Origin: Deltaproteobacteria bacterium
GTDB lineage: Bacteria > Chloroflexota > Dehalococcoidia > Dehalococcoidales > BS750m-G39
Length of the DNA: 64,000 bases
Reading direction: 5' to 3'
Assembly (NCBI GenBank): GCA_030603275.1
Contig: JAUVYB010000008.1
Coordinates: 98 to 64,097, forward strand
In this document: piece by piece, positions 10,728 through 64,000 of the stretch
Position numbering within the stretch: position 1 is the first letter of the stretch
Layout: every line of letters begins with the position of its first letter
Made by a program: the position numbers and the translations under genes
Notes under the pieces: model-generated
What the model was told of the DNA's origin: nothing
The model's database searches: none
What the model saw: the letters and a program-made list of their open reading frames with translations, nothing else

Positions 10728-10803
10728 GCTATACCTCCCCTTATCCCCCCACCCTAGAATGTCTCCAGATTAGATGGTAGAATGGGTGACAGGATAAAGG
10801 AAA

Positions 10804-11436: not shown

Positions 11437-11450
11437 AGAAAGGCTATTAA

Positions 11451-36672: not shown

Positions 36673-39636
36673 CTACAGCTTCGCCACCTTGATTACCAGC
36701 ACTATCATGGTAATCAGCATGGCCATCATCACCAGCATAAAGACCAGGAACATTATGCCCCCCATCGGCATAATCAACTCCGTCCAGTCAAAAGCGCTGG
36801 TCTGTGGCGGTGGAGGCGGCTCCAGTGGCGGTTCCGCCTCTAAAGGCGCTGGACCGGTAGAGAAGGCGCCGACGGCGCTCCAGGCGCTGTGAGTATCGCC
36901 GTTTACCGCCCTCACCTTCCAGTAGTAGGTGGTATCGTAGTCCAGGCTTACGTTGCACTGCCAGGCGGTGCTGGCCAGGGTGTAGCTATCGGTCTTGAGG
37001 ATGGTGGGGTTGTCAAACTCGGCCCGGGTGGAAACCACCAGCTCGTAGCTATCGGCGCCGGCGATGGCGCTCCACTGGAAGATGGGCTTTACCGAAACGG
37101 CGCTGGCGCCGGCCTCGGGGCTTTCCAGCAGCGGGGCCAGGACCTCACTGCCGATGCTGGTGGTAAAAGACCACTTATCCGACCAGGGGCTTAACACCGG
37201 CTCGGTGACCCTCACCCGCCAGTAGCAGGTGGTGCCCGGTTCCAGGGCGGGCAGCTGGGCGGTGCTGGCCTTGGTATCGCCCTCAAAGCCTAAGGGGACG
37301 GCGGAAAAATCGGTGTCGTAGTCAAGCTGCCATCGGTACTGGTCGGCGCCCTCCAGCGTCTCCCAGTCGAGGCTTACATTTCGGGCGGTGTCGTTAACCA
37401 GGGTGCCCACGCCCGGCGCTTTATCTCCCGGTGAGGTGAGGCTGACCGGCTGGGTCAGGCTGTCGTAGTAGCTCACCAGCCTCGTATTAGCGCTGTCAAC
37501 CGACCACAGCCGGTGCCCGGCCAGCCACAGCCCGGCCAGCTTAGCCCCCTCGTCCAGCCCCTTGGTCACGGTCTCAAAGGTCGGCCCCAGGGAGTAGGTC
37601 GGGTTAAGGCAGCGCTCCATGCCCCCGTCCGCCTTAAAATTACTGGCGTACAGGGTGCCCTCGCCGGAGACTATTAGCTGACCGAGCATACCCTCGGCGG
37701 GGCTGTCGATAGCCTCCCAGCGTTCGCTCTTGCCGATGATAAAGCGGTAGATACTCTCCCCCTCGGTGTCGCCGGCGGCATAGACGGTGCTATTATCGCT
37801 GTAACCGGGGTCAAGGGCGACTGTTACCGTGCCGTTCAGCGGGCTTGAGGCGGCCTCTGGCGGCAGCGACTCGAACGAGGCACCGTTATCCCTGGACCAG
37901 TACACCCGGCCGTCCTTATTGCCGATTAAGACGGTCTCGTCCTGTTCGTAGCTTGGGGATAAGACTATGGAGTTCAGCGGTTGGCTGCCGGCAACTTCCC
38001 CGTCGGAGTAGCTCAGGCCGCTGTTGGTGGTTAGGTAGACCCGCCCGTTAGTGCCGTCGTAGCTGCCGATAAACAGGCTGTCGTCACCAGCCACCGCCCA
38101 GCAATCAATGGGGAAGCGGGCAATCTTACGCTTAAAGCTCTGCCCGTTATCGGTTGACTTCCATACCGCCGCTTTGCCGTTGCTAGAGCCGGTCAAGAAG
38201 ACCACCTGGCTGTCTTCGTCGTACTGCGGGGAAAGCGCCACCCGGTCAATCTCGTCCACATCGGCCAGGGCGCTGGTGTAGGTCCTCTCCCAATCGGCTC
38301 CCCCGTTAAGGCTGCGCCAGAGGCTGTGGGCGCCGGCGGTATAGTAGGTGAGCATAAAGAGGCTGTTATCCCGGTTGTAGTGAGGCGACGGCGCCAGGTC
38401 AACTATATCTTCGATGACGGTATCGATAAAGCTTAGCTGGTTCCAGATGAGGCCGCCGTCCCGGCTTATGGAGAAGGCGCTCTCGGTGCCGCTGGTGGCG
38501 GCGTAAACCAGCCCGTTAGCCATAAGCAGGTAGGTCTGGCCATCTCCGGTGGGCGGTTTGGCGCTCTTCTCCCAGTTCTGGCCGCCGTCCTGGCTGAGGT
38601 AGATATCGGTACTGCCGGCGGCGCCGGCGATAAGATAAGCACTGTCAGCCTTGCCGCTGACCGCCAGGCCGATGACGTCAACATTGTCAACGTATTCAGC
38701 TTGGCCTATGTCGAGGTCAATAGCCAGCGACTTTGCCGGTGCCGCTTTCCCCATAATCCGGTAAACATCGCCGTTCTCACTGCCGGCGTCAATGCCGATA
38801 AACAGGACGCAGGCACTATTGGGCACATCGCAGTTGTAGTCATCAGGGAAAACGATGATGGCCGAGGTATCCACGGCTACCGAAACAGCAGTCATCGAGT
38901 TATCCTGGTTCAGCCGGGCGTCGCCGATAGCGGCGCCCCACGCCTGGTCAGCGATTTTGCCGGTAACAAAGGTATCAACCTCGTCGGTAACCACCGCCAC
39001 CAGCTGGCCGTCGTCGGTGTGGTTAGGCGAAAAGGCGATGTCATAAACATCGTAGTTGCCCACCCCGGCGTCGGTCCAGGCGAAGGGGCTGTCGGGTTTA
39101 AGCAGGTAGACGCCGCCAAACTCACCCCCGTCTTTATCTCTGGTGCCCACGGCGATGATGTTGCTGTCCGGTTCGGCAAAATCCCTGGCTATATCCAGAG
39201 AGGTAATTTCAATGTTGTTATCCCCCGCCCCGCCCGGGCCCTTCGGCAGGGGCAGGAAGCTCTCGGCGCCGTCGTCGGACTCGTAGACCCGGGAGGCGGT
39301 GGCGTAGTAGACCAGGCTGGCGTCATCGGGGGCGGTAGCTATAGCGACGATATCGTCGGCCACTTCGCCCCTGGCCTGCCAGCTATAGCCGTCGTCCACC
39401 GAGCTATAAAGGGTGTAGTCCAGCCCTTGGCCGCAGGCGTACAGGGTGCCGTCGTTGGCCATGGTAAGGTGCTGTATATCGGAACCCCAGGCCAGCCCCC
39501 AGTCCCCCTTTTCGCCATCGGCGGGGACATTAACCCGCGACCATTTTAACAAATCGGGGGCGGCCGCAGCCGGGGTGGTGAAGCTGCTCAATATTAACAG
39601 GAGAAGCCCTAGAGTTATCGCCGTTGCTTTCGCCAT
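36673..39636 (-). CDS. giant surface protein: signal peptide, Asp-box (BNR) beta-propeller region, two FN3-like modules, Pro-rich linker, C-terminal TM anchor
   Basis: Asp-box-like motifs include SVDDGYSW, SQDGGQNW, SRDGGLIW, SLNGGADW, STDNGQSF and SRDNGASF. Two roughly 85-aa modules end in YWRVR/YWKVR..W. The C-terminal hydrophobic helix is LIMPMGGIMFLVFMLVMMAMLITMIVLVI. The ATG at 39636 gives a signal peptide. Confidence 0.8.
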   Translation of the reverse strand: MAKATAITLGLLLLILSSFTTPAAAAPDLLKWSRVNVPADGEKGDWGLAWGSDIQHLTMANDGTLYACGQGLDYTLYSSVDDGYSWQARGEVADDIVAIATAPDDASLVYYATASRVYESDDGAESFLPLPKGPGGAGDNNIEITSLDIARDFAEPDSNIIAVGTRDKDGGEFGGVYLLKPDSPFAWTDAGVGNYDVYDIAFSPNHTDDGQLVAVVTDEVDTFVTGKIADQAWGAAIGDARLNQDNSMTAVSVAVDTSAIIVFPDDYNCDVPNSACVLFIGIDAGSENGDVYRIMGKAAPAKSLAIDLDIGQAEYVDNVDVIGLAVSGKADSAYLIAGAAGSTDIYLSQDGGQNWEKSAKPPTGDGQTYLLMANGLVYAATSGTESAFSISRDGGLIWNQLSFIDTVIEDIVDLAPSPHYNRDNSLFMLTYYTAGAHSLWRSLNGGADWERTYTSALADVDEIDRVALSPQYDEDSQVVFLTGSSNGKAAVWKSTDNGQSFKRKIARFPIDCWAVAGDDSLFIGSYDGTNGRVYLTTNSGLSYSDGEVAGSQPLNSIVLSPSYEQDETVLIGNKDGRVYWSRDNGASFESLPPEAASSPLNGTVTVALDPGYSDNSTVYAAGDTEGESIYRFIIGKSERWEAIDSPAEGMLGQLIVSGEGTLYASNFKADGGMERCLNPTYSLGPTFETVTKGLDEGAKLAGLWLAGHRLWSVDSANTRLVSYYDSLTQPVSLTSPGDKAPGVGTLVNDTARNVSLDWETLEGADQYRWQLDYDTDFSAVPLGFEGDTKASTAQLPALEPGTTCYWRVRVTEPVLSPWSDKWSFTTSIGSEVLAPLLESPEAGASAVSVKPIFQWSAIAGADSYELVVSTRAEFDNPTILKTDSYTLASTAWQCNVSLDYDTTYYWKVRAVNGDTHSAWSAVGAFSTGPAPLEAEPPLEPPPPPQTSAFDWTELIMPMGGIMFLVFMLVMMAMLITMIVLVIKVAKL

Positions 39637-39643
39637 ATGGCAA

Positions 39644-39672
39644 ATTCTAGTCACCTGTTGGACGCAAGTCAT
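39644..39672 (-). promoter_or_regulatory. promoter (ATGACT-17-TAGAAT), -10 is 7 nt from the ATG at 39636
   Basis: The reverse complement reads ATGACTtgcgtccaacaggtgacTAGAATttgccatATG. Confidence 0.4.
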
Positions 39673-39686
39673 AGAACATTGTTCTA
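39672..39686. promoter_or_regulatory. perfect 7-1-7 palindrome TAGAACA-T-TGTTCTA abutting the -35 region
   Basis: Read directly from the sequence. It lies 36-50 nt upstream of the surface-protein start codon. Confidence 0.4.
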
Positions 39687-39713
39687 CCCCACCCCGTTAT
39701 GCAGGGGAAAAGG

Positions 39714-39742
39714 GGAAGCCCCCCGCACTGCGGGGGGCTTCC
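39714..39742 (-). terminator. intrinsic terminator hairpin after the 39793-43101 gene
   Basis: 13-bp perfect GC-rich stem ggaagccccccgc/gcggggggcttcc with a 3-nt loop, followed on the minus strand by CCTTTTCC. Confidence 0.6.
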
Positions 39743-39792
39743 GGTATTGGCTTAAGGTGTTACCCTTTTAGCTACCTAACAGGTTAGTACCG

Positions 39793-42700
39793 TCAGGGTA
39801 CTCTCCTGGTGGTGACTATCAGGACTATCACCGCAATTACCAATATGGCGCCGATGATAACTATCGCCCAGATCCAGGCAGGAGTTATCACGTCAGGTTG
39901 CTCCACTACTATCGGTGGTGGTGCATCAGTAACCACGGGTGGCGTACCCATGGTAGTGAATGTACCAACATCACTCCATGGAGTATCGGTATCAACACCA
40001 ATAGCCTTCACATGCCAGTAGTAGCGAGTTTCGTAATCAAGGGTGGTATCGCACTTCCAGGCAGTGCTGACCAGAGAGTCGGTACCGACCAGTGCCACCA
40101 GAGGCGCAGCGAAGTAACCGCCGGCAGTGGTCGTTGGGTCAATGGCGAGCTCGTACTCGTAAACCTCTGCCCACTCAATGCCAGACCACTCAAAGGTCGG
40201 GCTTAGAGGAACATCAGGCTCGCCGGGCCATGGCGCCTGCAGGTCAGGTCGTGCCATAGAGGCACCGATAGCCGTCTTGAACTTCCAGGTCTCAGACCAG
40301 GGAGAAATCAGCGGTGCGCCGATAAGGCTACCCTGATTAGCAACCCTCACCCTCCAGTAGTAGGTCATGTTGGGATTGAGTGTCAGAGGCGGTGTTGCCA
40401 GTGATCTGGTGTAGCTATTAGGTGGAGTCACCACGGTCTTGAAGGCGGCGTCAATGGCTACCTGGTACTGGTAGCTGGTAGCGCCGGCCATCTCCTGCCA
40501 GGCTAGGTTGACTTCGGGATACACATAGCCCTCAGGCAGCAGCCCGACTCCGGTTTCATCCGCAGCCGGCATTGCCAGCGGCACACCGACGTTCAAAATG
40601 TCGGTGAACATTACTACCTGATCCCAGTAGTTGGCAGGGAGAGCAGCGCCGTTGAAGCAGAAGAATGTCGGTGCCAGTGCCGGTGGCGCTAGGTCCAGGC
40701 TCAGCAGCCCGAGTGCGTCGCCGGTATCAAGTCCCTTGTTCTCCCTCTCAAAGTAGGGTGGAACAACGCTGTCGGTATCGGCGGTGGCATTGGTGCTGCG
40801 CCACAGGCCGCCCTCGTCAGTGCCCACAGTCGTGGCGTCGATTGCGTAGAGGACGCCGCTGGGCGGCAGGGCTATCGCCGGTCCGCCGGCTGTAAAGTTG
40901 CTCTCGTCGTAAACCACGGCACCCGTGGAATCCTGGTTGTTATCTATCCGCTCCCACTCGGCATCGCCGGGGTTGTCAAGGTCAACCACGCAGCGCATTA
41001 CACCCTGATCGATACCAACGGGGGTGGTGGCGTAGAGGATGCCGTTGCCGGCAAAGCCGAGGTCAGAGGTGGCTATTGTCGGCAGGCCGGTGAAGGGGTT
41101 GTCAGTCCCCACATTCTCCACCGTCTCGCCGCCGTCGCTGGAGATGAACACTCCACCCACAGCGCCGATAAGGACGACATCTCCCATAATGCCTATATTG
41201 ATTATCCCAGCCGCAGCCGGAATCTCACTGTCGTCGGGTTTGTTCCAGCCCGTGCCGGACCTGGTCGTCCACCATATCTCGCCTGCGCTACCGGTGTAGA
41301 GCGTCGTCGCCGATACGGGGGCAACCGTTGTCAGAGGTGTCTTGGCGGATATCTTCTTCGGGAAGGTGGTGCCCATGTCGGTTGACCGCCAGATCAATTC
41401 GGCACCCAGGTCGGTAGCGAACATGGCGCTGCCGTCCCCCAGGATGTCAAGCCGGTTTAGCCCGTCGGTCACGCCGGGGGTGGCGTAGGAGAGTATCCTC
41501 TCCCAGTTCTTGCCGTCAATTCTGCCCCACAGCGCGCCGTCGTTGGCGTCAACCTGGGTAATCGCCCACAGCGTGCCGTTGGCGTTGTAGCCGTTGGCGC
41601 TGAAGCCCGTCGGAGCTGTGATGGCGTAGCAAGGCTCGTCTAAGGTGTCATCAAAGCCGTAGTCTATTATGCTTATCTGGTTCCAGCTCGCGTTGCCGTT
41701 GGTGGTGCGCTGGAAGGCGTCGGTCATGTAGCCCCAGGTTGATGCGTAGGCCAGACCGCTGTCACAGTAGCCGGGCGCCATCAGCACCCCGGTGTTGACA
41801 CGCTGGTATTGTAGGTTAGGCGCATTCTCGGCTCCGCCGGTGGGGCACTTGAAGGAGAACATCCAGCTATCGCCGCTGTCCTCACTGTGGTAGGTGGACC
41901 AGCACGCCGGCGTATCGGTCAGGTCTATGAGGTCGGTGCCCACCAGTATGGTGGCTGCCTCGGCATCGCCGCACACGTCAATGCTGGTAACCGGCGTTGA
42001 CGTCGGCAGCAGGGTGGTGATTACCCCCCTCACGTCAAGGTCTATCGTCGAGGAGGGTCCCGCCTCCTTGAGCACTACCTTGTAGGCGTCGCTGCCGCCA
42101 TTTTCATTAAAGTTAACGCCCAGGTTTCCGAGGAAACCGTTTTCAACTATGCCCGCGAAGCAGACGTTGTTGCCGATGCCGAATGCGTCAAAGTCGTCGG
42201 GGAAGGCAATCTTGGCCCAGTCCGAATCGAAAGGAGTGCCCCAGGCATTGGTGAAGGGTCCGTTGGAGATGTCGTCTCCCCATTCACCGCCGTCAGCGAC
42301 GTTGGCGAAGGAGAACGTCATCGTGGTTGTCCAAGGGCTATCGTAGTCGGTGACTATGGCGCAGATGCCTATGTCGCCGTCAGCTGCGAAGGTGGGCAGG
42401 AAGGCGCAGGCCAGCACATTGTCGGTGGCGTCAAGGGGTGGGTCAGCGGCAATAAGCTGTGGCGTCCAGGCCAGCAGCCCCGATGTCACGTATACTTCGG
42501 GCTCGGTGGTGGCCACTATTAATGACAGGTCGCCGTCCTCGGCGATGGCTATATCCAGATCGTTAATAGTGCCGCCCCAGGGGTCATTAAGCGCAGTAAA
42601 GTTCTTGCCGCCGTCCTCCGAAATGTAGACGAAGTCCTCGGTGGCTACGGCCAGGGTGGTGTCGTCGTCGTACTCCGGCGAGGTCACGATGTCCACTATG

Positions 42701-43101
42701 GGGTCGCCAGTCACAGCATCATCGTAGAAGCCGGTGACTATCCAGGAGTAGCCGCCGTCGGTGGACTTCAGCAGGTGGAACCAGCTGGAGCCGAGGTAGA
42801 AGCCGTCAGCCACCGCCGCGAACAGGATGCCGCCGTCGGGCGTCTGGGCTATCGGCCCTAGGTCAGCCGCCGGTGTCGCCCAGAAATCGCCCTCGGAGTC
42901 AGCAAACTCGCCGGCGAGAATGGTGGTGCCGTAGCTCGTATAAGTGGCGCCGTAGTCCTCAACCTTGGGCAGTTCCAGCTTGGTAAACTTCAGGTTGCTG
43001 GAAGCCGCTCCGGCCGGGACTCCTGCCAGGCCAACTGTTAGGCTGGCCAGCAGCACCACTGTCAGGGCCACTCCCACTATTTTATAAAGTTTTGTTTTCA
43101 T
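39793..43101 (-). CDS. giant surface protein, paralog of 36673-39636
   Basis: Asp-box-like motifs include STDGGYSW, SEDGGKNF, SEDSGDSW, TTNGNASW, STDMGTTF and SSDGGETV. Two YYWRVR/YYWHVK modules and a C-terminal TM (WIWAIVIIGAILVIAVIVLIV) with a TTRRVP tail. The ATG at 43101 (MKTKLYKIVG...) is preferred over the TTG at 43158. Confidence 0.8.
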   Translation of the reverse strand: MKTKLYKIVGVALTVVLLASLTVGLAGVPAGAASSNLKFTKLELPKVEDYGATYTSYGTTILAGEFADSEGDFWATPAADLGPIAQTPDGGILFAAVADGFYLGSSWFHLLKSTDGGYSWIVTGFYDDAVTGDPIVDIVTSPEYDDDTTLAVATEDFVYISEDGGKNFTALNDPWGGTINDLDIAIAEDGDLSLIVATTEPEVYVTSGLLAWTPQLIAADPPLDATDNVLACAFLPTFAADGDIGICAIVTDYDSPWTTTMTFSFANVADGGEWGDDISNGPFTNAWGTPFDSDWAKIAFPDDFDAFGIGNNVCFAGIVENGFLGNLGVNFNENGGSDAYKVVLKEAGPSSTIDLDVRGVITTLLPTSTPVTSIDVCGDAEAATILVGTDLIDLTDTPACWSTYHSEDSGDSWMFSFKCPTGGAENAPNLQYQRVNTGVLMAPGYCDSGLAYASTWGYMTDAFQRTTNGNASWNQISIIDYGFDDTLDEPCYAITAPTGFSANGYNANGTLWAITQVDANDGALWGRIDGKNWERILSYATPGVTDGLNRLDILGDGSAMFATDLGAELIWRSTDMGTTFPKKISAKTPLTTVAPVSATTLYTGSAGEIWWTTRSGTGWNKPDDSEIPAAAGIINIGIMGDVVLIGAVGGVFISSDGGETVENVGTDNPFTGLPTIATSDLGFAGNGILYATTPVGIDQGVMRCVVDLDNPGDAEWERIDNNQDSTGAVVYDESNFTAGGPAIALPPSGVLYAIDATTVGTDEGGLWRSTNATADTDSVVPPYFERENKGLDTGDALGLLSLDLAPPALAPTFFCFNGAALPANYWDQVVMFTDILNVGVPLAMPAADETGVGLLPEGYVYPEVNLAWQEMAGATSYQYQVAIDAAFKTVVTPPNSYTRSLATPPLTLNPNMTYYWRVRVANQGSLIGAPLISPWSETWKFKTAIGASMARPDLQAPWPGEPDVPLSPTFEWSGIEWAEVYEYELAIDPTTTAGGYFAAPLVALVGTDSLVSTAWKCDTTLDYETRYYWHVKAIGVDTDTPWSDVGTFTTMGTPPVVTDAPPPIVVEQPDVITPAWIWAIVIIGAILVIAVIVLIVTTRRVP

Positions 43102-43308
43102 CGACCTTAAATTATCCTCCTTATGTTGTTCCCCACATGAAGGGCAATTACCCCTCAATATGGAGACAAGGTTATAGTTTTTCTCGAAGTTAGACTCCTT
43201 TCCCTCGGGCTTAACTGCCCTTGGGCTCTCACCATCGCATCACCTCCTTTTAAAGTTATATCAATATATCAAAACTTTTCAGTTGTCAACCTGCTCATTG
43301 ATGTCTGA

Positions 43309-47610: not shown

Positions 47611-50295
47611 CTATTCAATTTCACCCTCGGTGGTGTTGAAGACCTTGGGTAAGTAGGCCTCCAGGCCGAGCGAGTTGGTGGCCATCAGCTCTATATGAAG
47701 ATCCTGCCCGCAGTAGGCATCTATCTCCATCATATCCTCAAAGAACTCCGTAGATATATCTTGGAGATTGACCAGCGGCTCTCCGTTCACATTCAGAGCT
47801 ATACTGGTGACCGGCAGCAGGCCGCCGGTGAGGTCACGGGCGTGGAATCTGATGGTAACCAGGCAACCCTGGCATTCCTCGTCCACATAGGAGCAGTTGG
47901 AATAGCCTTCAAGGTAAATTTGCAGCACATCCTGGGATAGCGGCATAGTCACCCAGACGCTGGCAGAGTCCTGGTCGTTAACGACCACGTTGTAGTCATA
48001 GCCGCAGTGGGCGCTGGCGTAAACTGTATTTATGTTCTCCCCCGTGTCCTTGGCGATGGCTTCATATTCAATAGCTATACTTTCTCCCGGCGCCAGGGCC
48101 TCTATCTCCATCAGGTTCCAGTTCAGCGTTACTCCCCCCTCGCCCGGGCTGATGCTACCGGGTTCTCTGCCGTAAGATTCGCCGTCGATGTAAATCACCG
48201 CCCCACCGCCGTACTCCAGGCAGTCGGGCAGGAAGTCCACTATCTCCATCTCGACGATGTCGCGGCACTTGCCGCTGCTCTCGATATCCACTCTAAAGGT
48301 AACCATCTGGTCGGGCCAGACTTCAATCTCATCCACCCACTCCTCACCCATCTCGTCCCAGACCCATTTCTCCACATCTATGCCCGGTGAGCAGGGGCAC
48401 GTGCAGTCGCACCACTGGTTATCGCTCCAGGGCTGCTGCCCCGTACCGTTGGCATCTCGGTGCTCGTTTACCGCCGCCTCGCCTGAAGCACCGGCTTCGG
48501 CGGGGTCAACGCCGTCGGGCGGGTCGGTGGTATCCGCTTTGGGGTCGCCGGCAGCCTCGGCAAAGCCGTTGGTATAGACGCCCCCGCTGGGGGTGGCCCG
48601 TGACGGGGTGTCGGTTGACGTGCCCACCACCGCCCTTCCCTGCCCGGTCACCCCGGGCTTATTAAAGTTGCCCGCGTAACAGGACTCTATTATCACACTA
48701 ACGTGGCAGCACTTGCTCGGCGTTTCGCAGTCTTCATCGGGGCAGGGGGCGATTTTAGCCAGAAGGGCGGATAGGTCACCCGGTTTCATTTCCTCCTGCG
48801 TTTTACCACTGCTGTTCTTCAGGGCGATACCCCCGCCCCCCGTCTTCTGGCCGTGTCCGCAGATATATATCAGGACATAGTCCCCGCACTTAACGCTATC
48901 GGCCAGGTCGTCAAAGGCCTGGGCGATGCTGGCCAGGGAGTTATTGCCGGGGCCGAGATTACCCATTGAGGAATAGCCCTGTTCGGCGGCAACCTTGTTT
49001 ATCGTGTCAACGGAACGCTGCACGATAGGTGTCCCCTGGGCTGTATGTTTGGCCATATCGCCGCCGCTGATGGTAATCACGTAATAATTTATATCGTAGC
49101 CGCAGGGGCCCTTGGCCGGACCCGGCGGGGGCGGTCCCCCGTTACCGTTGCCGTTGGGTGGTGGTGGCGGTGGAGGTGGTGGAGGAGGCGGCGGCGGTGG
49201 CGGCGGGTTATCGGTCAGGAAACCGCAGTAGTCCTCGATTTCGCCGTAGTCAAACTGGCCGCTGCCGTCCCAGCCGCCCACATTGGCGAACTGGCTTTCC
49301 TCGATTTTAGCCCGGGTCAGGGCCAGTCTCATCCATACCGGCCAGACCGGCGGGGTCGCTTTCCCCCAGGCAAAGAGGGGGGTCATTATCGTATCCGAGG
49401 TGCCGGGCTTGACTTTTACCTCCAGGTTGACGGTAACCCACTCCGCCCCGGCGGCACCGCTACTCCAGTTCCCGCTCTGGTCAAAGTCAATCAGGGCGTT
49501 GGCGTAGCGGGTAATATCGGGGGCGCCGGCGCTGACGGCCACGGTAAAGGCCAGCCTGGCCTGGCTCTGTTCGGTAATGATATATATTCTCTCGTCGCTG
49601 TCGGCATCAACCAGGTTAGGCACGCCGTCGGGGTCACTGGGGTCGCTGGCGTCGACCTCGGCGCTGACGTTAAAGCCGAGGGTTTCTTCGCCGGTGTTGA
49701 GGGTATGCCCTCCCGGTCGGCCGAAATGACTGTTGGTGGTATTAAATAGGGTTGGGTAGCGCCCCATGACCCCGTAGTAGGCGTCCTGCCCGTCGGGGGC
49801 GTCCCCGTAGTCGCCAATGGGGTTGGTATTGGCGCTGCCGGCAATCGGCCCGGGGAAGCCCAGTACCGACCAGACCTCGATGAGGTGTCCCCGCCCCACA
49901 TTATCGGTATCCCACATCGAGAAATTATTGATCAGGGGCGGCCAGCTTTCATTGACGATGTTATAAGTGCCGTTTCGGGTGTCGATAAAAACATAGCGGG
50001 TAGCGTGGGCGTAGAATGCCTGCGGGTCATCATCGATAAAAATAAACCAGGTGCTGGCGTTTATCGGGTAATCGGTGCCGCTCTCCGAGGTGACCACGTC
50101 GCCCTTCTTCAGCGGCTCGGAGGGCATAAAGGCCGAAATTCGGGTGTCGTCGGCGGCCGGGGGTATTATCTCACCCACCAGTATATCGATAGCCCCCCAC
50201 TTATCGATACCGGGCTTGGGACATCCGGTCAAGGGTATAGTGATAAGGACAACAATTAGCAGACAGGAAATTAATATTTTTTTGGTGGTGTTCAT
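47611..50295 (-). CDS. multidomain lipoprotein: GEVED-like domain, poly-Pro spacer, clan CD (C13/caspase-like) peptidase-like domain, Ig-like (CARDB/DUF11-type) C-terminal domains
   Basis: Lipobox-like [13 protein letters not shown]...FDYGEIEDY brackets a GEVED-type domain. There are 17 consecutive Pro, then [24 protein letters not shown]...[13 protein letters not shown] resembles the His-Gly/Cys dyad of clan CD peptidases. Confidence 0.65.
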
Positions 50296-57224: not shown

Positions 57225-57779
57225 ATGGAGTATCTCTGGTTCATAGCCTTGGCCGTGGTAGTGGTCGGGGTGGGCGGCTGGCAGCTGGCGGTCTGGATAG
57301 TCGAAAGCCGGGCCAAAAGCCGGCAATACAAGGCCGCCTGTGCCTGCGCCCGGGAGAAAGGCAAGCCACTGCTGGTGGCCGGCGGCCCCTGGGGCGCTAC
57401 CCGGACCCGCCACCGGTTGAACAAACCGGCTCACGGCAGCGGTGACGTCTGCTTGGATATTAACCCGCGCGCCTTTGACGGCCACCCCAGGGCGATAATG
57501 GCCAGTGTTACCCATATTCCCTTTGCCGATAAATGCTTCGGGGCCGTTTTTGCCAGCCACCTGCTGGAGCACCTGCCCACGGTGGATGCCGCCAGCCAGG
57601 CCTTGGCCGAGCTTAACCGGGTAGCCGAGGCGGTCTATATCGTCTATCCCTCGCGGCAGTCCTTCGGCGGCTGGATGGTACCCGACCACCACCTCTGGGT
57701 CTGGCAGAAGGACAACACCACCTACCTCAGGCAGAGAGGTAAATCAAACGGCAAGAGGGCGGCAGAATATTATGGTTGA
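57225..57779 (+). CDS. membrane-anchored class I SAM-dependent methyltransferase-like protein
   Basis: N-terminal TM helix, then DVCLDINP...THIPFADKCFGAVFASHLLEHLP, which resembles the Methyltransf_11 core. Confidence 0.55.
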   Translation: MEYLWFIALAVVVVGVGGWQLAVWIVESRAKSRQYKAACACAREKGKPLLVAGGPWGATRTRHRLNKPAHGSGDVCLDINPRAFDGHPRAIMASVTHIPFADKCFGAVFASHLLEHLPTVDAASQALAELNRVAEAVYIVYPSRQSFGGWMVPDHHLWVWQKDNTTYLRQRGKSNGKRAAEYYG

Positions 57780-58599
57780 ATTAGCCGGAACCGACTTTAA
57801 TAATAAAGATAGTGCGGTAGATATGGCCGATGTCGCCCTGGCCTTGTGGGAAGAAGCCCGCCATATCGGCCGCCAGCTTTTCGGCGATGATGTGGAGAAA
57901 GGCGTCGGCTTTGCCGACCGGCTCATGGCAATCTACCAGGACGCCCAGGGCAAGGACTTTCTGCTTATCCATAACCCCGGCGGCTGGGGCAACTCGCCGC
58001 TGGAAAACTGCATGCACTGGGAGAGAAGCGTGATCGCCGGAATCAGCGCCACCCTGGAAAAGCTGGGCTACAGCTGGTTCTTAAGCCAGCACTTCCGCGC
58101 CAGCGTCGGCTGGCGGGCACACCTGCGGGATATCAGGGATTACCTTCGTTTCTTTACCGTCAAGCGCCGGGTTTTAGCCGCCGAGGTGGAATTTTTAACC
58201 AAACACCTGAAAAACCTCAAGGTGATACTCATCGGCATCAGCCAGGGCGCCGGCTTCAGCAATGCGGTGATGCAGCGTTTAAGCGAGCTCAAGCGCGTTT
58301 ACAGCATAGAGCTGGGCGTCTTTTTCTTCCTCCGGCCGCGGCGGGTAATTACCGAAAGGACGCTGATAATAGACCATAACGGGCTGATGCCCGATGCCGT
58401 TTTCGAGGGGGACTTAATCACCATGGTCATGACCCTGCCCATGGCTTTCTTGCGGTGGGTCAAGTGTCGGCTCAAGGGCAAGCCAGTTAACTTCAGCCAC
58501 TGCATCAAGCTCGCCGGTCATGATTATCACTGGAAATACCCCAAGGTCAGCCAGCAGATTGGGAGCTTCCTCAAGGTCAACTTCGGCGCCAGGCGTTAG
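57772..58599 (+). CDS. hypothetical protein, possible alpha/beta-hydrolase fold
   Basis: 275 aa. GISQG (G-x-S-x-G nucleophile-elbow pattern) follows a beta-strand-like VILI. Overlaps the upstream gene by 8 nt. Confidence 0.4.
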   Translation: MVELAGTDFNNKDSAVDMADVALALWEEARHIGRQLFGDDVEKGVGFADRLMAIYQDAQGKDFLLIHNPGGWGNSPLENCMHWERSVIAGISATLEKLGYSWFLSQHFRASVGWRAHLRDIRDYLRFFTVKRRVLAAEVEFLTKHLKNLKVILIGISQGAGFSNAVMQRLSELKRVYSIELGVFFFLRPRRVITERTLIIDHNGLMPDAVFEGDLITMVMTLPMAFLRWVKCRLKGKPVNFSHCIKLAGHDYHWKYPKVSQQIGSFLKVNFGARR

Positions 58600-58651: not shown

Positions 58652-58727
58652 GGGGCCGTAGTTCACTTGGGAGAACGTTTGACTGGCAGTCAAAAGGTAG
58701 GGGGTTCGAATCCCCCCGGCTCCACCA
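58652..58727 (+). tRNA. tRNA-Ala (anticodon GGC), CCA encoded
   Basis: Manual cloverleaf: acceptor GGGGCCG/CGGCTCC with the G3:U70 alanine identity pair, D stem GTTC/GAAC, anticodon stem TTTGA/TCAAA with loop CTGGCAG, and T arm GGGGG-TTCGAAT-CCCCC. Confidence 0.93.
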
Positions 58728-58825: not shown

Positions 58826-59443
58826 CTAATCTAAGCCTGGCTTTGCCTTTTCCACAAAATGCGCCGAGGCATACCGGCATAGCCTTTGACTGCCGGGCAA
58901 TTTCTTAAACCTGGCCACTTCATCGTCACCGATAACCGCTATCGTGCCGAATCTATCCTGTATATCCTGGGCAAAAGCACAGTGCCCGCATTCATATTCA
59001 CGGTCGCAAAGACGGTAAGAGACGGCGCCGAGTTCCAGCCACAGGTGTTTCTTAGCGGCTTTTTTTGCTTCTGCCTCCCCCAGCGCCTGGGAAATCAACT
59101 TTTCCAGGTCCTCGACCTTGAAAGGCTTGGCCAGATAGTCCATCAGCCCCAGCTTTTTAGCTCTGTCCTGGGTTTCCTTGGAAGGGTAGGCGGTAATTAT
59201 TACTCCCTTGGTTTCAGGCTTAAGCTCTTTGGCATGTTCGAACACCTGCAGGCCATCGATATCCGGCAGCTTCAAATCCAGAACGATGACCCCAAACTCT
59301 TCCTTCTTAATTTTCTTTAGTGCCTCCTCCCCACTCTCGGCAACTTCAACATCATAGCCGTCCTCAACCAGCCACTCCCGCACGCTGTCCCTCACTACTG
59401 CCTCATCCTCCACGATGAGCACCTTTCTTTTCTTCGTTGCCAT
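58826..59443 (-). CDS. response regulator: receiver domain plus C-terminal Cys-rich module (RR1)
   Basis: Receiver with VEDE, acceptor VLDLKLPD and AKPF. The C-terminus has SYRLCDREYECGHCAFAQ and LPGSQRLCRYA. GGAGG RBS. Confidence 0.85.
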   Translation of the reverse strand: MATKKRKVLIVEDEAVVRDSVREWLVEDGYDVEVAESGEEALKKIKKEEFGVIVLDLKLPDIDGLQVFEHAKELKPETKGVIITAYPSKETQDRAKKLGLMDYLAKPFKVEDLEKLISQALGEAEAKKAAKKHLWLELGAVSYRLCDREYECGHCAFAQDIQDRFGTIAVIGDDEVARFKKLPGSQRLCRYASAHFVEKAKPGLD

Positions 59444-59533
59444 CGTTTTCCTCCTTCCTTAAAATAAAGGGCACGCTCTGATTTGAAGCATACCCTCTAC
59501 TATAAATCTATGTCAATAGCCGGAATTTCTTGG

Positions 59534-60550
59534 CTAAGCCTTGGTCTTCTGCTCCTTCTTCAGCAGCGCTTCCCGCCGCGCCTGTAGCTTGACCAGCTTT
59601 TGCTGCGTGGCGTCTTCCATCATCTGGCCGAACTCACAGGTGGCGCACTTGAAGGTCCGGGTGCACAGGCGGTGGGAGACGTCCCCTTTAAGGGCATAGC
59701 GGCAGAGTCTCTGGCTCCCCGGCAGTTCCTTGAACCGCTCCAGCGCCTGGTCAAGCTCAGGGGTTGCCCCGCTGGCTATTTTCTCCTGCATCATCTGGTC
59801 AAACTCGCAGGTCAGGCAGTCGTAATCCCGGGTGCACAGGCGGTAAGATACCAGCCCCATCTTCATCCACAGGCACTCCTTGGGCTTTACCTCTTCGGCG
59901 ATAGCCTCCTCCCCGGCCACTGCCTCAACCCTCGGTGTTTCCAGTGCTTCCCTTGTCTTCCGTATCCAGACACGGGCCTCGATATTGCCCGGGGCGATGC
60001 CGAGGATAGCCTCAAATTCCCTCAGTGCCTCGCCGTAGCGGCCGGCCTCAAAGTGGGCCTTGCCCTGCTTGAGGTGGACCGGTATTTCTTCCGGAGCGAC
60101 CGTTGTAACCTTCTCAACCTCCACTTCCTCAACCGCTGGCGGCTCAACTTTAGCTTTTTCAGGGGCGGCCTTGGGCTTTATCTCCACCTGCACTGGGCCC
60201 AGGGTATCCCGGATTATTTTCTCCAGCTGATTAAGGTCAAAGGGCTTGGGCAAATAATCAAGAGCCCCCTCCTTGGTTGCCTCCACCGCCGTCTCCACCG
60301 ATGGGTAAGCGGTAATAATGACCCCCTTAAGCTGTGGGCTCTTCTCCTTAGCCTCTCTTAACACCTCAATCCCGTCCTTCCCCGGCAGCTTCAGGTCAAG
60401 GATAACAATGCCAAAGTCCCGCTCGGCAATAGCTTCCAGTGCTTCCTCTCCAGCCTCAGCCGTCTCCACCTTATAACCACCGTCGGTCAGCCAGTCCCTG
60501 AGTGCCTCCCTGGTGATGGCCTCGTCCTCTACTATCAATATCGGCTTCAT
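59534..60550 (-). CDS. response regulator: receiver, TPR-like helix pair, duplicated Cys-rich module (RR2)
   Basis: The ATG at 60550 has a GGAGG RBS. The longer track ORF would run through the sigma-54 promoter. C-terminal motifs are SYRLCTRDYDCLTCEFDQ, LPGSQRLCRYA and SHRLCTRTFKCATCEFGQ. Confidence 0.85.
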   Translation of the reverse strand: MKPILIVEDEAITREALRDWLTDGGYKVETAEAGEEALEAIAERDFGIVILDLKLPGKDGIEVLREAKEKSPQLKGVIITAYPSVETAVEATKEGALDYLPKPFDLNQLEKIIRDTLGPVQVEIKPKAAPEKAKVEPPAVEEVEVEKVTTVAPEEIPVHLKQGKAHFEAGRYGEALREFEAILGIAPGNIEARVWIRKTREALETPRVEAVAGEEAIAEEVKPKECLWMKMGLVSYRLCTRDYDCLTCEFDQMMQEKIASGATPELDQALERFKELPGSQRLCRYALKGDVSHRLCTRTFKCATCEFGQMMEDATQQKLVKLQARREALLKKEQKTKA

Positions 60551-60594
60551 CTTTTTGCCTCCTTTTCTCTTTTCTATCTCCCACCCTATATGAG

Positions 60595-60610
60595 TGCAAT
60601 TTTCCTGCCA
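60595..60610 (-). promoter_or_regulatory. sigma-54 (-24/-12) promoter TGGCAGGAAAATTGCA
   Basis: Matches TGGCAC-N5-TTGCW with exact GG-N10-GC spacing. It is 45 nt upstream of the RR2 ATG and directly downstream of a sigma-54 activator gene. Confidence 0.75.
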
Positions 60611-60657
60611 AAAGAAAAGGCCACCCTTAACATTCAGGATAGCCTCTCTCATATTTC

Positions 60658-60678
60658 AAGCGTCACATTTAAACGCTT
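60658..60678. promoter_or_regulatory. inverted repeat AAGCGT-N9-ACGCTT, candidate activator binding site or weak terminator
   Basis: It sits 48-68 nt upstream of the -24 element. No T-run follows on either strand. Confidence 0.35.
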
Positions 60679-60683
60679 AAAAA

Positions 60684-62048
60684 TTATCGCTTATTGTCTA
60701 TTTTCTTTACATTTAATCTATAGGCCTTGATCTTATTATAGAGGGTCATCCGGGAAATACCCAGTATTCTAGCCGCCTCGGTATAATTTCCTCTGGCTTT
60801 GGCCAGCACATCCTGGATATGCTTTTCCTCCACCTGTTTAAGGTTCTTCGCCGGTGAGGTTGAGCCGGCCGGCATCAGCTCCTGCTGGGACAGGTCGGCA
60901 GCCTCAATAACGGAATTTTGGGCCAGGATGACGGCTCTTTCAATAGCGTTTTCCAGCTCCCGGACATTACCCGGCCAATCATGTTTCAGCAGAAAATCGG
61001 TGGCCTCAGGGGAAAATCCGGCTATCTCCTTCTGGTTCTCCAGGGCAAACCCCTTTAAGAAATGCTCAGCCAGCAGGGGAATATCCTCCGTCCTTTCTCT
61101 CAAGGGGGGCAGTTCAATGTTAACCACGTTCAGCCGGTAGTAAAGGTCTTCCCTGAATTTCCCCTGGGCTATCGCTTCTTTCATATCCACGTTGGTAGCC
61201 GAGATAACCCGCACATCAACCTTAACCGGCTCATTGCCGCCCACCCGGTTAAACTCCTTCTCCTCCAGGACTCTGAGCAAGTGGACCTGGATATTGGCGC
61301 TCATCTCGCCAATCTCGTCCAGGAACAGCGTGCCACCGTCAGCCGCCTCAAACTTCCCCTTCTTCTGGGCGTAGGCCCCGGTAAAGGAGCCTTTCTCATG
61401 GCCGAATAGCTCACTTTCCAGCAGGCTCTCGGGCAGGGCGGCGCAGCTGACGGCGACAAAGGGCCTGTCACGGCGGTAGCTCTGGGAATGGACGGCCCGC
61501 GCCACCAGCTCCTTACCGGTGCCGGTATCGCCGGTAATCAATACGGTGGCGTTGCTCTTGGCTACCATCTTGATTACCTCAATCACCTGCTGCATCCTGG
61601 AGCTTTTGGCGACGATATTCTCAAACCGGTAGCGCTCCTCCAGTTTCTGGTGCAGGGCGATGTTCTCCTCCCGCAGCCGCCGGTGCTCCATCAGCTTCTC
61701 AATCAATATCTCGGCCCGTTCCGGGCAGAAAGGCTTCTCGATGTAGTCATAAGCGCCCTCCCTGATGGCATTAATGGCGGTGGGGATGCTGCCATAGGCG
61801 GTAATGATAATCACCTCTATGCCGGGGAGTAGTTCCCTGGCCTTTTTCATCACCTCAATCCCGTCCATTCCCGGCATCACCAGGTCGGTAATAAGGACTG
61901 CCGGCTTCTCTTTCCGGATAATCTCCAGGGCCTGGGGGCCGTTCTCGGCGGTAAGCACCTGGTGGCCAACGTCGTCCAGCCAATCACGCAGCGATTCGCG
62001 GACGATGGCTTCATCATCAGCGACCAGTACTTTAGTTTTCTTCTTCAT
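60684..62048 (-). CDS. sigma-54-dependent response regulator (NtrC-type enhancer-binding protein)
   Basis: Receiver (VADDE, ITDLVMPGMDG), AAA+ core with GDTGTGKE and the GSFTGA sigma-54 contact loop, and a C-terminal Fis-type HTH (AARILGISRMTLYNKIK). Confidence 0.93.
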   Translation of the reverse strand: MKKKTKVLVADDEAIVRESLRDWLDDVGHQVLTAENGPQALEIIRKEKPAVLITDLVMPGMDGIEVMKKARELLPGIEVIIITAYGSIPTAINAIREGAYDYIEKPFCPERAEILIEKLMEHRRLREENIALHQKLEERYRFENIVAKSSRMQQVIEVIKMVAKSNATVLITGDTGTGKELVARAVHSQSYRRDRPFVAVSCAALPESLLESELFGHEKGSFTGAYAQKKGKFEAADGGTLFLDEIGEMSANIQVHLLRVLEEKEFNRVGGNEPVKVDVRVISATNVDMKEAIAQGKFREDLYYRLNVVNIELPPLRERTEDIPLLAEHFLKGFALENQKEIAGFSPEATDFLLKHDWPGNVRELENAIERAVILAQNSVIEAADLSQQELMPAGSTSPAKNLKQVEEKHIQDVLAKARGNYTEAARILGISRMTLYNKIKAYRLNVKKIDNKR

Positions 62049-63267
62049 GGTGCCGTGGCAGGTAGATAGTAAAGGTGGTACCCTCTCCTTCTTTACTCTG
62101 GACTTCTATTCGGCCTTTATGGCGCTGGATAATGCCGTAGGCCACCGCCAGACCGAGGCCCACCCCCTTCCCCTTCTCCTTGGTGGTAAAGAAGGGGGTG
62201 AACAGTTTGTGCATATTCTCTTTAGAGATACCCTGACCCGTGTCCTGGACCTCTATTTTAAGCTGATTGTCGTCGGCCGAGGTGCGCAGGGTCAGCCTGC
62301 CCCCTTTGGGCATGGCCTGAAGGGCGTTCATAATGAGGTTGAGGCTAACCTGTTGAAGCTGGTCGAAATCAGCCATAATATTAGGCAGGGAAGAGGCAAG
62401 CTCTTTGCTCACCTGGATATTCTGTAGTTGAGCCGAATGAGCAGCAAGTTCAAGGGCCCGTCCCAGGACTTCGTTGGCATTCACCTCTCTTAGAGCTGGT
62501 GGCGACTGGCGAGCAAAATCCAGAAGGTTGCGGATTAATCTGGAGCTTCGGATAAGTTCAGTCTCCATTTTAGCCAGGGATTCAAGGGCACCCTCTTTGG
62601 TGAATGTGCCGCTATTCAGCTTTTTAGCCAGCAACTGGGTATAGACCAGGACTCCGGCCAGGGGATTATTTACCTCGTGGGCAATAGAAGCCGCCATCTG
62701 ACCCAGAGAAGTCAGCTTCTCCGCCTGGATTAGCTGTTCCTGGTTTTCCCTGAGGCGTTTATCATATTGGCTGAGTTCCTTATAGGCTTTATCCAGTGCG
62801 GCACGTGCCCTTCTTTCACCCTCAATCCGGCTGAGCTGCATTGCCACCAGCGTGCCAATAAAAGCGGCAAGGATGACAAAGAGGGCCGCCCGGACGAGCG
62901 GGTCGGTGTAAGGGGAGAAAAGCAAGGCACGCGGCAGTACCACGCAGAGAAAAGTGAAGGAGGTTATCAGGCTTCCCCACACCCCGAATACCATAGCCGC
63001 GTAGACTATGGGAATGAAGAACAAGGTCCGGTGTAAATCGTGGACGCCGGTGAAAAAGCTGTGGCTAAACGGCGCCAGGCTAACCAGCGGAGTCTGGTCA
63101 ATATAGTAAACGAGAGTAAGAAAGGCCATCAGCGCCACTATTATCCAGCAATGGGGACTGCGCACGCCTCTTGGCCTCCGCTCATCGGATAGCCATGCCA
63201 CCAGCCTTCCGGCGCTGTTTTCCTCCCAGCGCTGCCAGGTGCTCTTTGGGGTGTTATCGTTGTTCAT
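62032..63267 (-). CDS. membrane sensor histidine kinase
   Basis: About 4-5 N-terminal TM helices with no large extracytoplasmic loop. H-box SIAHEVNNPL, N-box LNLIMNALQA, G-boxes VQDTGQGI and GKGVGLGL. Overlaps the activator gene by 17 nt. Confidence 0.9.
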   Translation of the reverse strand: MNNDNTPKSTWQRWEENSAGRLVAWLSDERRPRGVRSPHCWIIVALMAFLTLVYYIDQTPLVSLAPFSHSFFTGVHDLHRTLFFIPIVYAAMVFGVWGSLITSFTFLCVVLPRALLFSPYTDPLVRAALFVILAAFIGTLVAMQLSRIEGERRARAALDKAYKELSQYDKRLRENQEQLIQAEKLTSLGQMAASIAHEVNNPLAGVLVYTQLLAKKLNSGTFTKEGALESLAKMETELIRSSRLIRNLLDFARQSPPALREVNANEVLGRALELAAHSAQLQNIQVSKELASSLPNIMADFDQLQQVSLNLIMNALQAMPKGGRLTLRTSADDNQLKIEVQDTGQGISKENMHKLFTPFFTTKEKGKGVGLGLAVAYGIIQRHKGRIEVQSKEGEGTTFTIYLPRHHEEEN

Positions 63268-64000
63268 GATTCCCTCCCCTGAGTTAAGGCTTGTTTTCGC
63301 TTACGCACCGCCGGTATCTTCAATTCCTTCCTCAAATCGGCCACCGAGCGCCGGGAGATAGCCACGCCGAATTTCTCCAGCAGCTTTGCCCTGATTGCCT
63401 CATCGGAGAGAAGCCCCTCCTCGGCCTCAAGCAGCTGCTTTAGGAGTTCCTTCTTGAACATCCTCGGCCTGGGGAAAAAGTGTTTCAGGGGAACTTCTTC
63501 ACCCCAGGGTGTACCAATGCTCTTGCCCCTTGTGGCACGGCTTACCGAGCTTGTGGCCAGCCCAATCTTTTTGGCCAGCTCCTGCTGGCTGAAGGGCAGG
63601 AGGGCCTTCAGGTTGCCGGAGTCCAGGTAAAGCGCCTGCTTATCAATGATGTTCTGCAATATCTGAGTGATTGTGTCCTTGCGGCTGTTGACTAGCTCCA
63701 GCTTATTAAATAGCTGCCTGGCTTGCTTGCTTTCGGCCTTGGTGAAAGCCCCACTTGCTTTCAACTCCTCGAACCTCTGGTAATTAATGGAGTACCGCCC
63801 CCTGGCTAACGAGGCTGAAGAGTAGCCGATAACAAAGCCCCGTTCGTCCTTATCCACCGTGGCAACTTTATAATAGTGAATCGCCTCTGAGCTGAGGGCG
63901 GAAGGGTTATAGAACTCGCTCAGGATAGAAAGCTCATCGATAAGGCTGTTGATCTTTTGAACCTCGGAAACGGCCAGCCCACATTCTGCGGCTATTCCTT
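63264..64000 (-). CDS. rpoN: RNA polymerase sigma-54 factor, C-terminal part (5' end outside window)
   Basis: The frame stays open to the window edge. HTH ELAKKIGLATSSVSRATRGKS and an RpoN-box-like ISRRSVADLRKELKIP. The stop overlaps the kinase start (ATGA). Confidence 0.8.
   Translation of the reverse strand, partial: GIAAECGLAVSEVQKINSLIDELSILSEFYNPSALSSEAIHYYKVATVDKDERGFVIGYSSASLARGRYSINYQRFEELKASGAFTKAESKQARQLFNKLELVNSRKDTITQILQNIIDKQALYLDSGNLKALLPFSQQELAKKIGLATSSVSRATRGKSIGTPWGEEVPLKHFFPRPRMFKKELLKQLLEAEEGLLSDEAIRAKLLEKFGVAISRRSVADLRKELKIPAVRKRKQALTQGRES

Follow-up and report, generated by a model that had tools for sequence, protein, structure and literature searches.

The window analysed here is a 64,000-nucleotide (nt) stretch of contig JAUVYB010000008.1, which belongs to a member of the Dehalococcoidia. 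At its far end lie five co-directional genes on the minus strand, all of which had been described in a first-pass annotation and all of which are present as open reading frames (ORFs): the 3' part of rpoN, coding for sigma-54; a membrane histidine kinase; an NtrC/AtoC-type bacterial enhancer-binding protein (the activator); and two response regulators, RR2 and RR1 (Table 1). Every recognisable part of the standard sigma-54 mechanism, in which a kinase phosphorylates the receiver of an activator and the activator, by the GSFTGA loops of its AAA+ ring, remodels the sigma-54 holoenzyme, is present in the region. The region is read, with moderate confidence, as a sigma-54 regulatory cassette specific to Dehalococcoidia, including the receiver and redox roles proposed below. 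Its transcriptional core, running from the kinase through the activator and a sigma-54 promoter to RR2, is judged highly probable from its anatomy and conservation.

Genes of the cassette

The rpoN, kinase and activator genes form a single translationally coupled operon that ends in an intrinsic terminator, an arrangement that is strongly supported. The rpoN stop and the kinase start share an ATGA (63264-63267) and the kinase overlaps the activator by 17 nt (62032-62048), both as first described. A gap does separate the activator stop from the RR2 start, although it measures 133 nt (60551-60683) and not the 134 nt given earlier. The longest RR2 ORF begins at 60652, within the promoter; the true start is the ATG at 60550, which is preceded by AAGGAGG. 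Of the Pfam profiles proposed at first pass for checking these genes, Sigma54_DBD, Sigma54_activat, HisKA, HATPase_c and Response_reg found their matches.

Table 1. Features of the sigma-54 cassette and its edges, in window coordinates
Feature	Position	Strand	Remarks
rpoN 3' part (sigma-54)	63264..>64000	-	last 244 codons and stop; cut by window end
Histidine kinase, 411 aa	62032-63267	-	HisKA and HATPase_c (Pfam)
NtrC/AtoC-type bacterial enhancer-binding protein, 454 aa	60684-62048	-	REC, AAA+, Fis-type helix-turn-helix (HTH)
RR2, 338 aa	59534-60550	-	REC, TPR-like unit and tandem 4-Cys module
RR1, 205 aa	58826-59443	-	REC (1-125) and Cys module reduced to one site
Tandem 4-Cys module of RR2	59606-59887	-	two C-x12-C-x5-C-x2-C repeats
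Cys module of RR1	58829-59053	-	His133, Cys146, Cys152, Cys155, Cys189
Predicted sigma-54 promoter TGGCAGGAAAATTGCA	60595-60610	-	GG 60609-60608, GC 60597-60596
Predicted intrinsic terminator	60611-60650	-	stem GGCUAUCCU/AGGGUGGCC, then UUUUCUUUU; abuts -24 element
Inverted repeat/hairpin UUAAGCGU-N-ACGCUUGAA	60654-60682	-	directly after activator stop
RR2-RR1 hairpin	59463-59501	-	core GGGUAUGCUU/GAGCGUGCCC, then UUUAUUUU; z = -3.7
Sigma-70-like promoter candidate TTGACA-18-TATGCT	59487-59516	-	consensus scan 10/12; weak; overlaps hairpin 5' arm
tRNA-Ala(GGC)	58652-58727	+	converges on RR1; marks cassette end

The window copy of rpoN ends before the N-terminal region I and the core-binding domain of sigma-54. 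The C-terminal DNA-binding domain is present, with an HTH (LATSSVSRATRGKSIGTP) and an RpoN-box-like sequence (ISRRSVADLRKEL); the fragment matches Sigma54_DBD at 4e-24 (profile positions 4-160 of 160; Pfam), covers positions 195-434 of TIGR02395 (NCBIfam) and aligns to the Aquifex sigma-54, HTH included, with SRRSVADLR against ARRTVAKYR. Its close homologues fall into 607 clusters; the lengths listed span 228-388 aa and are mostly 340-380 aa, and the few homologues with a name in NCBI records are called hypothetical. Orthologues that are 93-95% identical to the window copy measure 340-365 aa. A profile of the orthologues matches sigma-54 chains in the PDB (1e-17), and only the C-terminal half of this short protein aligns by sequence to solved sigma-54 proteins; neither region I nor the core-binding domain was detected by any sequence method in orthologues of 358-372 aa. 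A region-I-like motif, LRMEQANLLEMPEEEF..LI.EIE..PLF, is visible at their N-terminus. An AlphaFold 2 (AF2) model of a full-length, 93%-identical orthologue (predicted local distance difference test, pLDDT, 71) matched sigma-54 chains exclusively (best E 2.6e-9, about 290-446 alignment columns). The rpoN product is accepted as a short and divergent sigma-54.

The kinase is of the HisKA type, with Pfam matches to HisKA (8e-13) and HATPase_c (9e-29) and the H-box SIAHEVNNPL. Hydropathy peaks point to about four transmembrane (TM) helices at its N-terminus (residues ~40-146) and no extracytoplasmic domain; a coiled coil, a DHp domain with the H-box and a CA domain follow. Its best NCBIfam model is AtoS, well below the equivalog cut-off, and the contig collection yielded no exact match to the kinase. 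The activator belongs to the NtrC class of enhancer-binding proteins. It matches Response_reg (4e-28), Sigma54_activat (8e-76), AAA_lid_14 (6e-29) and HTH_8 (9e-15) in Pfam and shows GDTGTGKE and LFLDEIGE, together with the GSFTGA loop (HEKGSFTGA) and the Fis-type HTH that had already been recognised. AtoC is its best NCBIfam model (3e-151, 504 bits against a cut-off of 714), and the NtrC model gives 457 bits against 559; no named activator equivalog, AtoC, ZraR and NtrC included, scored above its NCBIfam cut-off.

RR2 matches Response_reg (4e-29) and, weakly, TPR_2 (3e-4), whereas RR1 matches Response_reg (3e-28) and nothing else in Pfam. RR2 consists of a REC domain (1-118), a linker rich in Pro, Glu and Lys, a TPR-like unit (~156-195), the cysteine (Cys) module (222-315) and a basic C-terminal helix. 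Many of its orthologues (L036, P0007, P0021 and P0034) end in an aromatic tail, SWWWSYW, which the window protein lacks. The REC domains of the activator, RR2 and RR1 carry the phospho-acceptor residues of this family: (D/E)D, the D in LDL/TDL, the T in ITAY and the K in KPF. They are 43-54% identical to one another (RR1 against RR2, 54%) and 29-30% identical to the neighbouring LuxR-type receiver, and their alpha-1 helices are nearly alike (DEA[IV][VT]R[ED][SA][LV]R[DE]WL). The three are paralogues. Because they are close paralogues with near-identical alpha-1 helices, a single kinase feeding all three is plausible, and it is fairly likely that RR2 and RR1 are phosphorylated by the same kinase as the activator. 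No other kinase, activator or receiver of the same type was found in the window.

Conservation of gene order and control elements

A scan with RR2 of one genome per species yielded 37 related loci in metagenome-assembled genomes of Dehalococcoidales, Dehalococcoidia and Chloroflexota, with RR2 orthologues that are 55-78% identical. About 20 kb was seen around each locus (numbered with the prefix L below), and the window proteins were mapped onto them by tblastn. The order rpoN-kinase-activator-RR2 is kept in 29 of the 29 loci that extend far enough, which answers the question of conserved gene order raised by the first-pass annotation. Because rpoN stands upstream of the kinase and activator, and RR2 behind a conserved -24/-12 element, in every one of these loci, the placing of rpoN next to these genes is conserved in the clade and not, as had been allowed for, incidental. 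A 95%-identical strain has a radical-SAM gene, rpoN, the 411-aa kinase and the activator in this order.

The near-consensus -24/-12 promoter noticed earlier ahead of RR2 was found again. It has one mismatch to TGGCACN5TTGCW, is the sole intergenic match of this kind in the window and places a cognate -24 GG/-12 GC element next to the activator gene; transcription is expected to start near 60583-60585. Among the 32 loci that include the upstream region, 31 have the element before RR2, 56-111 nt ahead of its start, and the exact core TGGCA-N6-TTGC is found there in 28 loci. In an alignment anchored on the promoter, information is near-maximal only across TTGGCA..AAATTGCA and low in the flanks. 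Exact-core and weight-matrix scans of the window and the related Dehalococcoidia loci placed the motif almost solely before RR2 or before receiver-fusion paralogues, and the few additional exact-core matches lie within coding sequence or have no gene downstream.

Just downstream of the -12 element a block, ATAGGGTGGAGG, is conserved, at 60575-60590 in the window and at the corresponding site of related loci. In many orthologues an additional in-frame ATG follows it, which would give RR2 about 17 more residues; the window copy has no such ATG. In L007 a second promoter core with a ATAGGGTGG block lies in an intergenic position 2.7 kb downstream of RR2 (10303-10340) with no gene behind it, and may be a remnant.

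A two-hairpin fold is predicted in the 60611-60650 region (-31.7 kcal/mol, z = -6.8). It is read as an intrinsic terminator closing the rpoN-kinase-activator operon, because a hairpin with a T-run is kept at the same position in most loci despite unrelated stem sequences, those of L017, L020, L024, L034 and L037 being wholly different. The inverted repeat that follows the activator stop may bind the activator or may form a hairpin in the RNA; it is not kept as a shared motif in the relatives.

The hairpin between RR2 and RR1 is a putative terminator or attenuator that parts RR1 from the sigma-54 unit, and it could also serve as a protein binding site. Hairpins with different inner stems occupy the same position in L010-L016, where, as in the window, the outer arms AAAGGGTA...TACCCTTT are kept while the inner stem varies, and hairpins also follow RR2 in L020, L023, L026, L032 and L034. 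A TGnTATAAT sequence stands between this hairpin and RR1 in L010, L013 and L014. RR1 itself follows RR2, as in the window, in 8 loci, has the membrane kinase on one side and sigma-54 or the first kinase on the other in 2, immediately precedes the activator in 3 and is missing at about 17; no sigma-54 motif was found before RR1 in the window or any related locus. Because a hairpin with a U-run intervenes, the sigma-54 motif is lacking and the position varies between loci, RR1 is probably a mobile accessory and not a fixed sigma-54 output. The chain first proposed, from one kinase through the activator to two further receivers, thus stands for RR2, by its conserved promoter and synteny, but probably not for RR1 as a fixed sigma-54 output. 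In L016 an RR1 orthologue (11175-11672) is cut to 165 aa, has lost its Cys ligands (SYRLCTKNYKYDSYAF) and is probably decaying.

The cysteine module and redox genes of relatives

The first-pass annotation had credited the output proteins with no recognisable effector domain. Both RR2 and RR1 in fact end in a conserved Cys-rich module that belongs to an unannotated family. A word-indexed search with the 75-aa tail of RR1 returned four fragments only, and an exhaustive profile search was needed to reveal the family, which comprises 280 representative clusters and has eight conserved Cys. In RR2 these are residues 226, 239, 245 and 248 of the first repeat and 283, 296, 302 and 305 of the second. 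In RR1 the first repeat reads H-x12-C-x5-C-x2-C, with the His in place of the first Cys that is typical of RR1-type proteins, and the second is truncated after its first Cys. The Cys that never vary in the family alignment are the final three of repeat 1 and the first of repeat 2, and exactly these four are kept in RR1. The module may be read as two interleaved 3+1 ligand sets, of which one site would be kept in RR1.

Among 147 family members the module is found N-terminal to GCV_H (41), with REC (13), TPR (7) or HisKA/HATPase (2), and also with Fer2/Fer4. The listed matches are named in their source records as "hypothetical protein" or by generic labels that do not describe the module (TPR repeat protein, thymidine phosphorylase, glycine cleavage system protein H), and those with a named source come from Dehalococcoidia/Chloroflexota, Syntrophobacteraceae, Desulfobaccales and Desulfobacteraceae. 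The module has no match in Pfam or NCBIfam and no sequence match in the PDB at E<=10; for RR2 and RR1 as a whole, no described output domain beyond REC and TPR was found among curated families or solved structures. An AF2 model of the module (pLDDT 88) gave no Foldseek match in the PDB better than E 4.4 and matched no DNA-binding fold. Literature searches on the module or on GcvH-like Cys-rich proteins found nothing specific.

Because the module is spread over fusions with GCV_H, REC, HisKA/HATPase and Fer2/Fer4, a DNA-binding function is unlikely, and a metal or iron-sulphur (Fe-S) module with a redox or signalling role is rather to be expected. The interleaved 3+1 ligand logic is that of 2x[4Fe-4S] ferredoxins. 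By analogy only, the module resembles these ferredoxins and the WhiB-like 4-Cys Fe-S proteins in its pseudo-symmetric duplication with apparent 3+1 Cys ligand sets, and WhiB in being a small Cys4 unit in regulation; it differs from both in its C-x12-C-x5-C-x2-C spacing and in matching no solved protein by sequence or fold, and its cofactor is putative.

In L036, a complete chromosome (CP070842.1), rpoN and the activator gene flank a gene for a 646-aa fusion kinase (6536-8476) with two Fer4 motifs, Fe_hyd_lg_C (7e-50), PF04060, HisKA and HATPase_c; its sequence shows SSNCP, GPCVAKK and FCHGCIDGP. Hydrogenase-like kinases of this kind occur in 23 related loci (L036 and 22 others): 20 have this kinase only and 3 have it together with the 4-TM kinase. 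The 4-TM kinase alone is present in 6 loci, as well as in the window and L063. The domain composition of the L036 fusion points to [FeFe] group C1, the "histidine kinase-linked" putative sensory hydrogenases (HydDB, PMC5037454). By Pfam, the H-cluster domain of that group (Fe_hyd_lg_C) is absent from the window kinase, whose core (residues 170-408) is nonetheless 72% identical to that of the L036 protein, with the same DHp helix after the His. A kinship of the window kinase N-terminus with the MASE3-like membrane protein encoded upstream of rpoN in L036 was considered and dropped, no similarity being found. Such relatives couple a sensory-hydrogenase kinase to an NtrC-type activator and sigma-54. 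Two loci (L036 14630-17024, L041 10254-12718) also encode a LuxR-type response regulator followed by a kinase with an N-terminal sensor of TPR and tandem 4-Cys type; this unit is 43-47% identical to that of RR2, and in L036 the core of the kinase is 51% identical to the window kinase.

Redox genes of NuoE/F-like or HdrCB/HdrA/MvhD-like type lie behind RR2 in 11 loci. Five have NuoE-like, NuoF-like and Fer2/Fer4 genes, in three cases directly behind RR2 with only a ribosome-binding site between, and six have HdrCB-like, HdrA/GltD-like and MvhD genes after a hairpin and a sigma-70-like promoter. Receivers ~75% identical to that of RR2 are, moreover, fused to redox modules: to Fer2_4/Fer4 in L036 (13548-14549), and to a GltD-like Fe-S flavoprotein in L016 (7609-9804), where a further copy of the sigma-54 promoter precedes the fusion at 7566, and in L042 (~10001-12232), where the fusion follows HdrB/HdrA-like genes. 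Standalone genes for the TPR unit with the tandem module (TPR-Cys2) adjoin HdrCBA-like or nitroreductase-Fer4 genes and GAF-kinase/LuxR pairs.

In Desulfobacterota, Cys2(+GcvH-like) genes are divergent to pairs of a PAS-kinase and a REC-activator. A conserved TGGCATG-N4-TTG(T/G) stands ~95 nt upstream of them (at ~5900 in L059/L060, L061 and L062, the gene being at 6001). This element would fit sigma-54 control if sigma-54 tolerates a T or G in place of the -12 C, and the Cys module may be a sigma-54 target in a second phylum. A TGTACA-containing repeat lies further upstream of the Syntrophobacteraceae-type Cys2(+GcvH-like) genes (L059-L062).

A search of the window for NuoE/F-like, hydrogenase-like and Hdr-like genes found none. 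The cassette there is a minimal, stripped-down variant: its sensor is a membrane domain, RR2 is followed by no redox genes, and RR1 is added on beyond a hairpin. The remainder of the window is ordinary chromosome (PolA, DnaK, CTP synthase, ClpB). An 894-aa ORF (47611-50295, minus strand) and a 275-aa ORF (57772-58599, plus strand) have no Pfam match at 1e-5, and adjoining 999-aa and 1121-aa proteins (36673-43158, minus strand) with Ig-like (Rha78A_N) domains, the former also with a Sortilin-type domain, are probably surface proteins.

Proposed mechanism, alternatives and significance

In the mechanism proposed, the kinase would phosphorylate the receiver of the activator, and the AAA+ ring of the phosphorylated activator would remodel the sigma-54 holoenzyme at the promoter ahead of RR2, so that RR2 is made. 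The same kinase would also phosphorylate RR2 and RR1. RR2 would thus need both induction and phosphorylation, forming a feed-forward branch that also drains phosphate. The Cys module, in RR2 together with the TPR unit, would act through protein contacts on partners in redox or energy metabolism, or would sense their state. The ancestral role of the cassette was probably an H2- or redox-responsive control of Nuo/Hdr-type complexes, since most relatives have the [FeFe]-hydrogenase-like sensor kinase and NuoE/NuoF-like or Hdr-like genes are found behind RR2.

Several known systems share parts of this wiring. NtrB/NtrC, AtoS/AtoC and ZraS/ZraR likewise combine a HisKA kinase, a REC-AAA+(GAFTGA-type)-HTH_8 activator and a -24/-12 promoter, and AtoS and AtoC remain the nearest NCBIfam models, with scores far below the equivalog cut-offs. 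The cassette differs from all three pairs in having rpoN in the same operon, a 4-TM kinase sensor and, as target gene, one for a receiver protein with an undescribed Cys module. The minimal sigma-54 cascades of small genomes, Hk2-Rrp2-RpoN-RpoS of Borrelia and CtcB-CtcC-sigma-54 of Chlamydia, also have a single two-component activator that is apparently dedicated to sigma-54, with very few targets; there, unlike in the cassette, rpoN is not known to share an operon with the kinase and activator genes, and the exclusivity of the cassette is putative. Extra receivers in a branched two-component pathway are known from the CheY phosphate sink of Sinorhizobium meliloti, where one kinase also faces several paralogous receivers, one of them possibly draining phosphate. 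In the cassette, by contrast, one branch switches on the transcription of another, and a conserved output module is attached to the extra receivers.

A known parallel to the relatives is HoxBC-HoxJ-HoxA of Cupriavidus necator, in which an H2-sensing NiFe sensor, a kinase and an NtrC-type activator act on sigma-54 hydrogenase promoters. The relatives of the cassette likewise join a hydrogenase-like sensor, a histidine kinase, an NtrC-type activator and a sigma-54 promoter before redox genes, but in place of a separate [NiFe] dimer their sensor is an [FeFe] group C1-type domain fused to the kinase, and the first target is a receiver protein. A hydrogenase-like sensor is lacking altogether in the window kinase. 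Both sensor types are catalogued in PMC5037454, which lists the NiFe group 2b sensor hydrogenases; the domain set of its [FeFe] group C1 (HydDB) matches the kinases of L036 and the 22 other loci, whereas the window kinase shares only the kinase core.

A number of points weigh against the reading proposed here. One-mismatch matches to the promoter consensus are at chance level in the 64 kb (2 found, 1.94 expected), and the significance of the promoter comes from its position and its conservation in relatives, not from the rarity of the match. A shared dyad that might bind the activator was sought within 260 nt upstream of the promoter in the 32 loci, and nothing but the terminator palindrome recurs there. 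RR1 lacks a sigma-54 promoter and is parted from RR2 by the hairpin, and its phosphorylation partner is suggested by paralogy alone. The metal or Fe-S nature of the Cys module is argued solely from the conservation pattern and the domain neighbours, its fold having no solved relative. The H2 and redox roles are extrapolated from relatives, because the window has neither the hydrogenase-like kinase nor Nuo/Hdr genes, and in six loci the Hdr-like genes are neighbours and not co-transcribed, because they have their own sigma-70-like promoter.

Alternative explanations differ mainly in what RR2, RR1 and sigma-54 are for. The two receiver proteins might be mainly phosphate sinks or a negative feedback, induced RR2 competing with the activator and ending the response, with the Cys module a structural zinc domain that has no output. 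Their receivers are indeed close paralogues of that of the activator, and RR2 is the sole gene behind the promoter in the window and most loci, with hairpins on both sides. A sink would not need a 200-residue C-terminal extension, however, and the TPR-Cys2 part is conserved at 55-78%, reused as an N-terminal domain of kinases, as a standalone protein and on GcvH-like proteins, while RR2-type receivers are also fused to bona fide redox modules. As the whole explanation a sink is therefore improbable; as a side effect it is compatible with the feed-forward mechanism. A two-step transcriptional cascade, in which RR2 and RR1 would act as a second tier of transcription factors, with the Cys module binding DNA as a new type of zinc finger, is slightly more improbable still. 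It can draw on the general rule that receiver proteins with a C-terminal domain mostly bind DNA, on the basic helix at the C-terminus of RR2 and on the secondary structure of the model, small Cys4 units with a helix after CxxC being potential zinc fingers. Yet a place at the N-terminus of histidine kinases and GcvH-like proteins, or beside Fer2/Fer4, would be odd for a DNA-binding domain, the model matched no DNA-binding fold and no repeated operator-like motif was noticed in the loci.

The remaining alternative concerns rpoN, which might encode a general sigma-54 that serves many other activators and promoters elsewhere in the genome, its adjacency to this two-component system being a habit of the lineage without functional exclusivity. 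Sigma-54 regulons are usually scattered (PMC3162934), and the data cover 64 kb of the source genome and ~20 kb per related locus, a scope that leaves room for this alternative. On the other side stand the gene order in 29 of 29 loci across an order-level clade, the translational coupling in the window, the near-restriction of the motif to RR2 and receiver-fusion paralogues in the window and related loci, and the lack of a second activator in the window, so that this alternative is possible but on balance unlikely. A bolder form of the dedicated-cassette reading is offered tentatively and is itself rather doubtful as a whole: sigma-54 would be single-purpose in these Dehalococcoidia, the induced receivers (REC-TPR-Cys2, REC-Fer2/Fer4, REC-GltD-like) would be phospho-controlled subunits or adaptors of electron-bifurcating Nuo/Hdr-type complexes, and the Cys unit would be a new Fe-S fold and a recurrent sigma-54 target in at least two phyla. 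If true, a phosphorelay of the two-component kind, responding to H2 in most lineages, would control electron flow directly through the proteins themselves.

A full-text literature search found no paper on sigma-54 in Dehalococcoidia, where this sigma factor is essentially undescribed. With kinase, activator, sigma factor, promoter and first target within ~5 kb, the cassette is a small closed system that suits in vitro reconstitution from organisms that cannot be cultured. Its wiring, a two-component system and activator acting through sigma-54, is familiar; what is new is the Cys module and the link to hydrogen and redox enzymes in the relatives. The function of the [FeFe] group C1 hydrogenases is still listed as undetermined (PMC5037454), and the relatives of the cassette offer a concrete downstream pathway for these "putative sensory" enzymes. 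The eight-cysteine family, in turn, ties two-component signalling, sigma-54 control and Hdr/Nuo-type redox enzymes together in Chloroflexota and Desulfobacterota.

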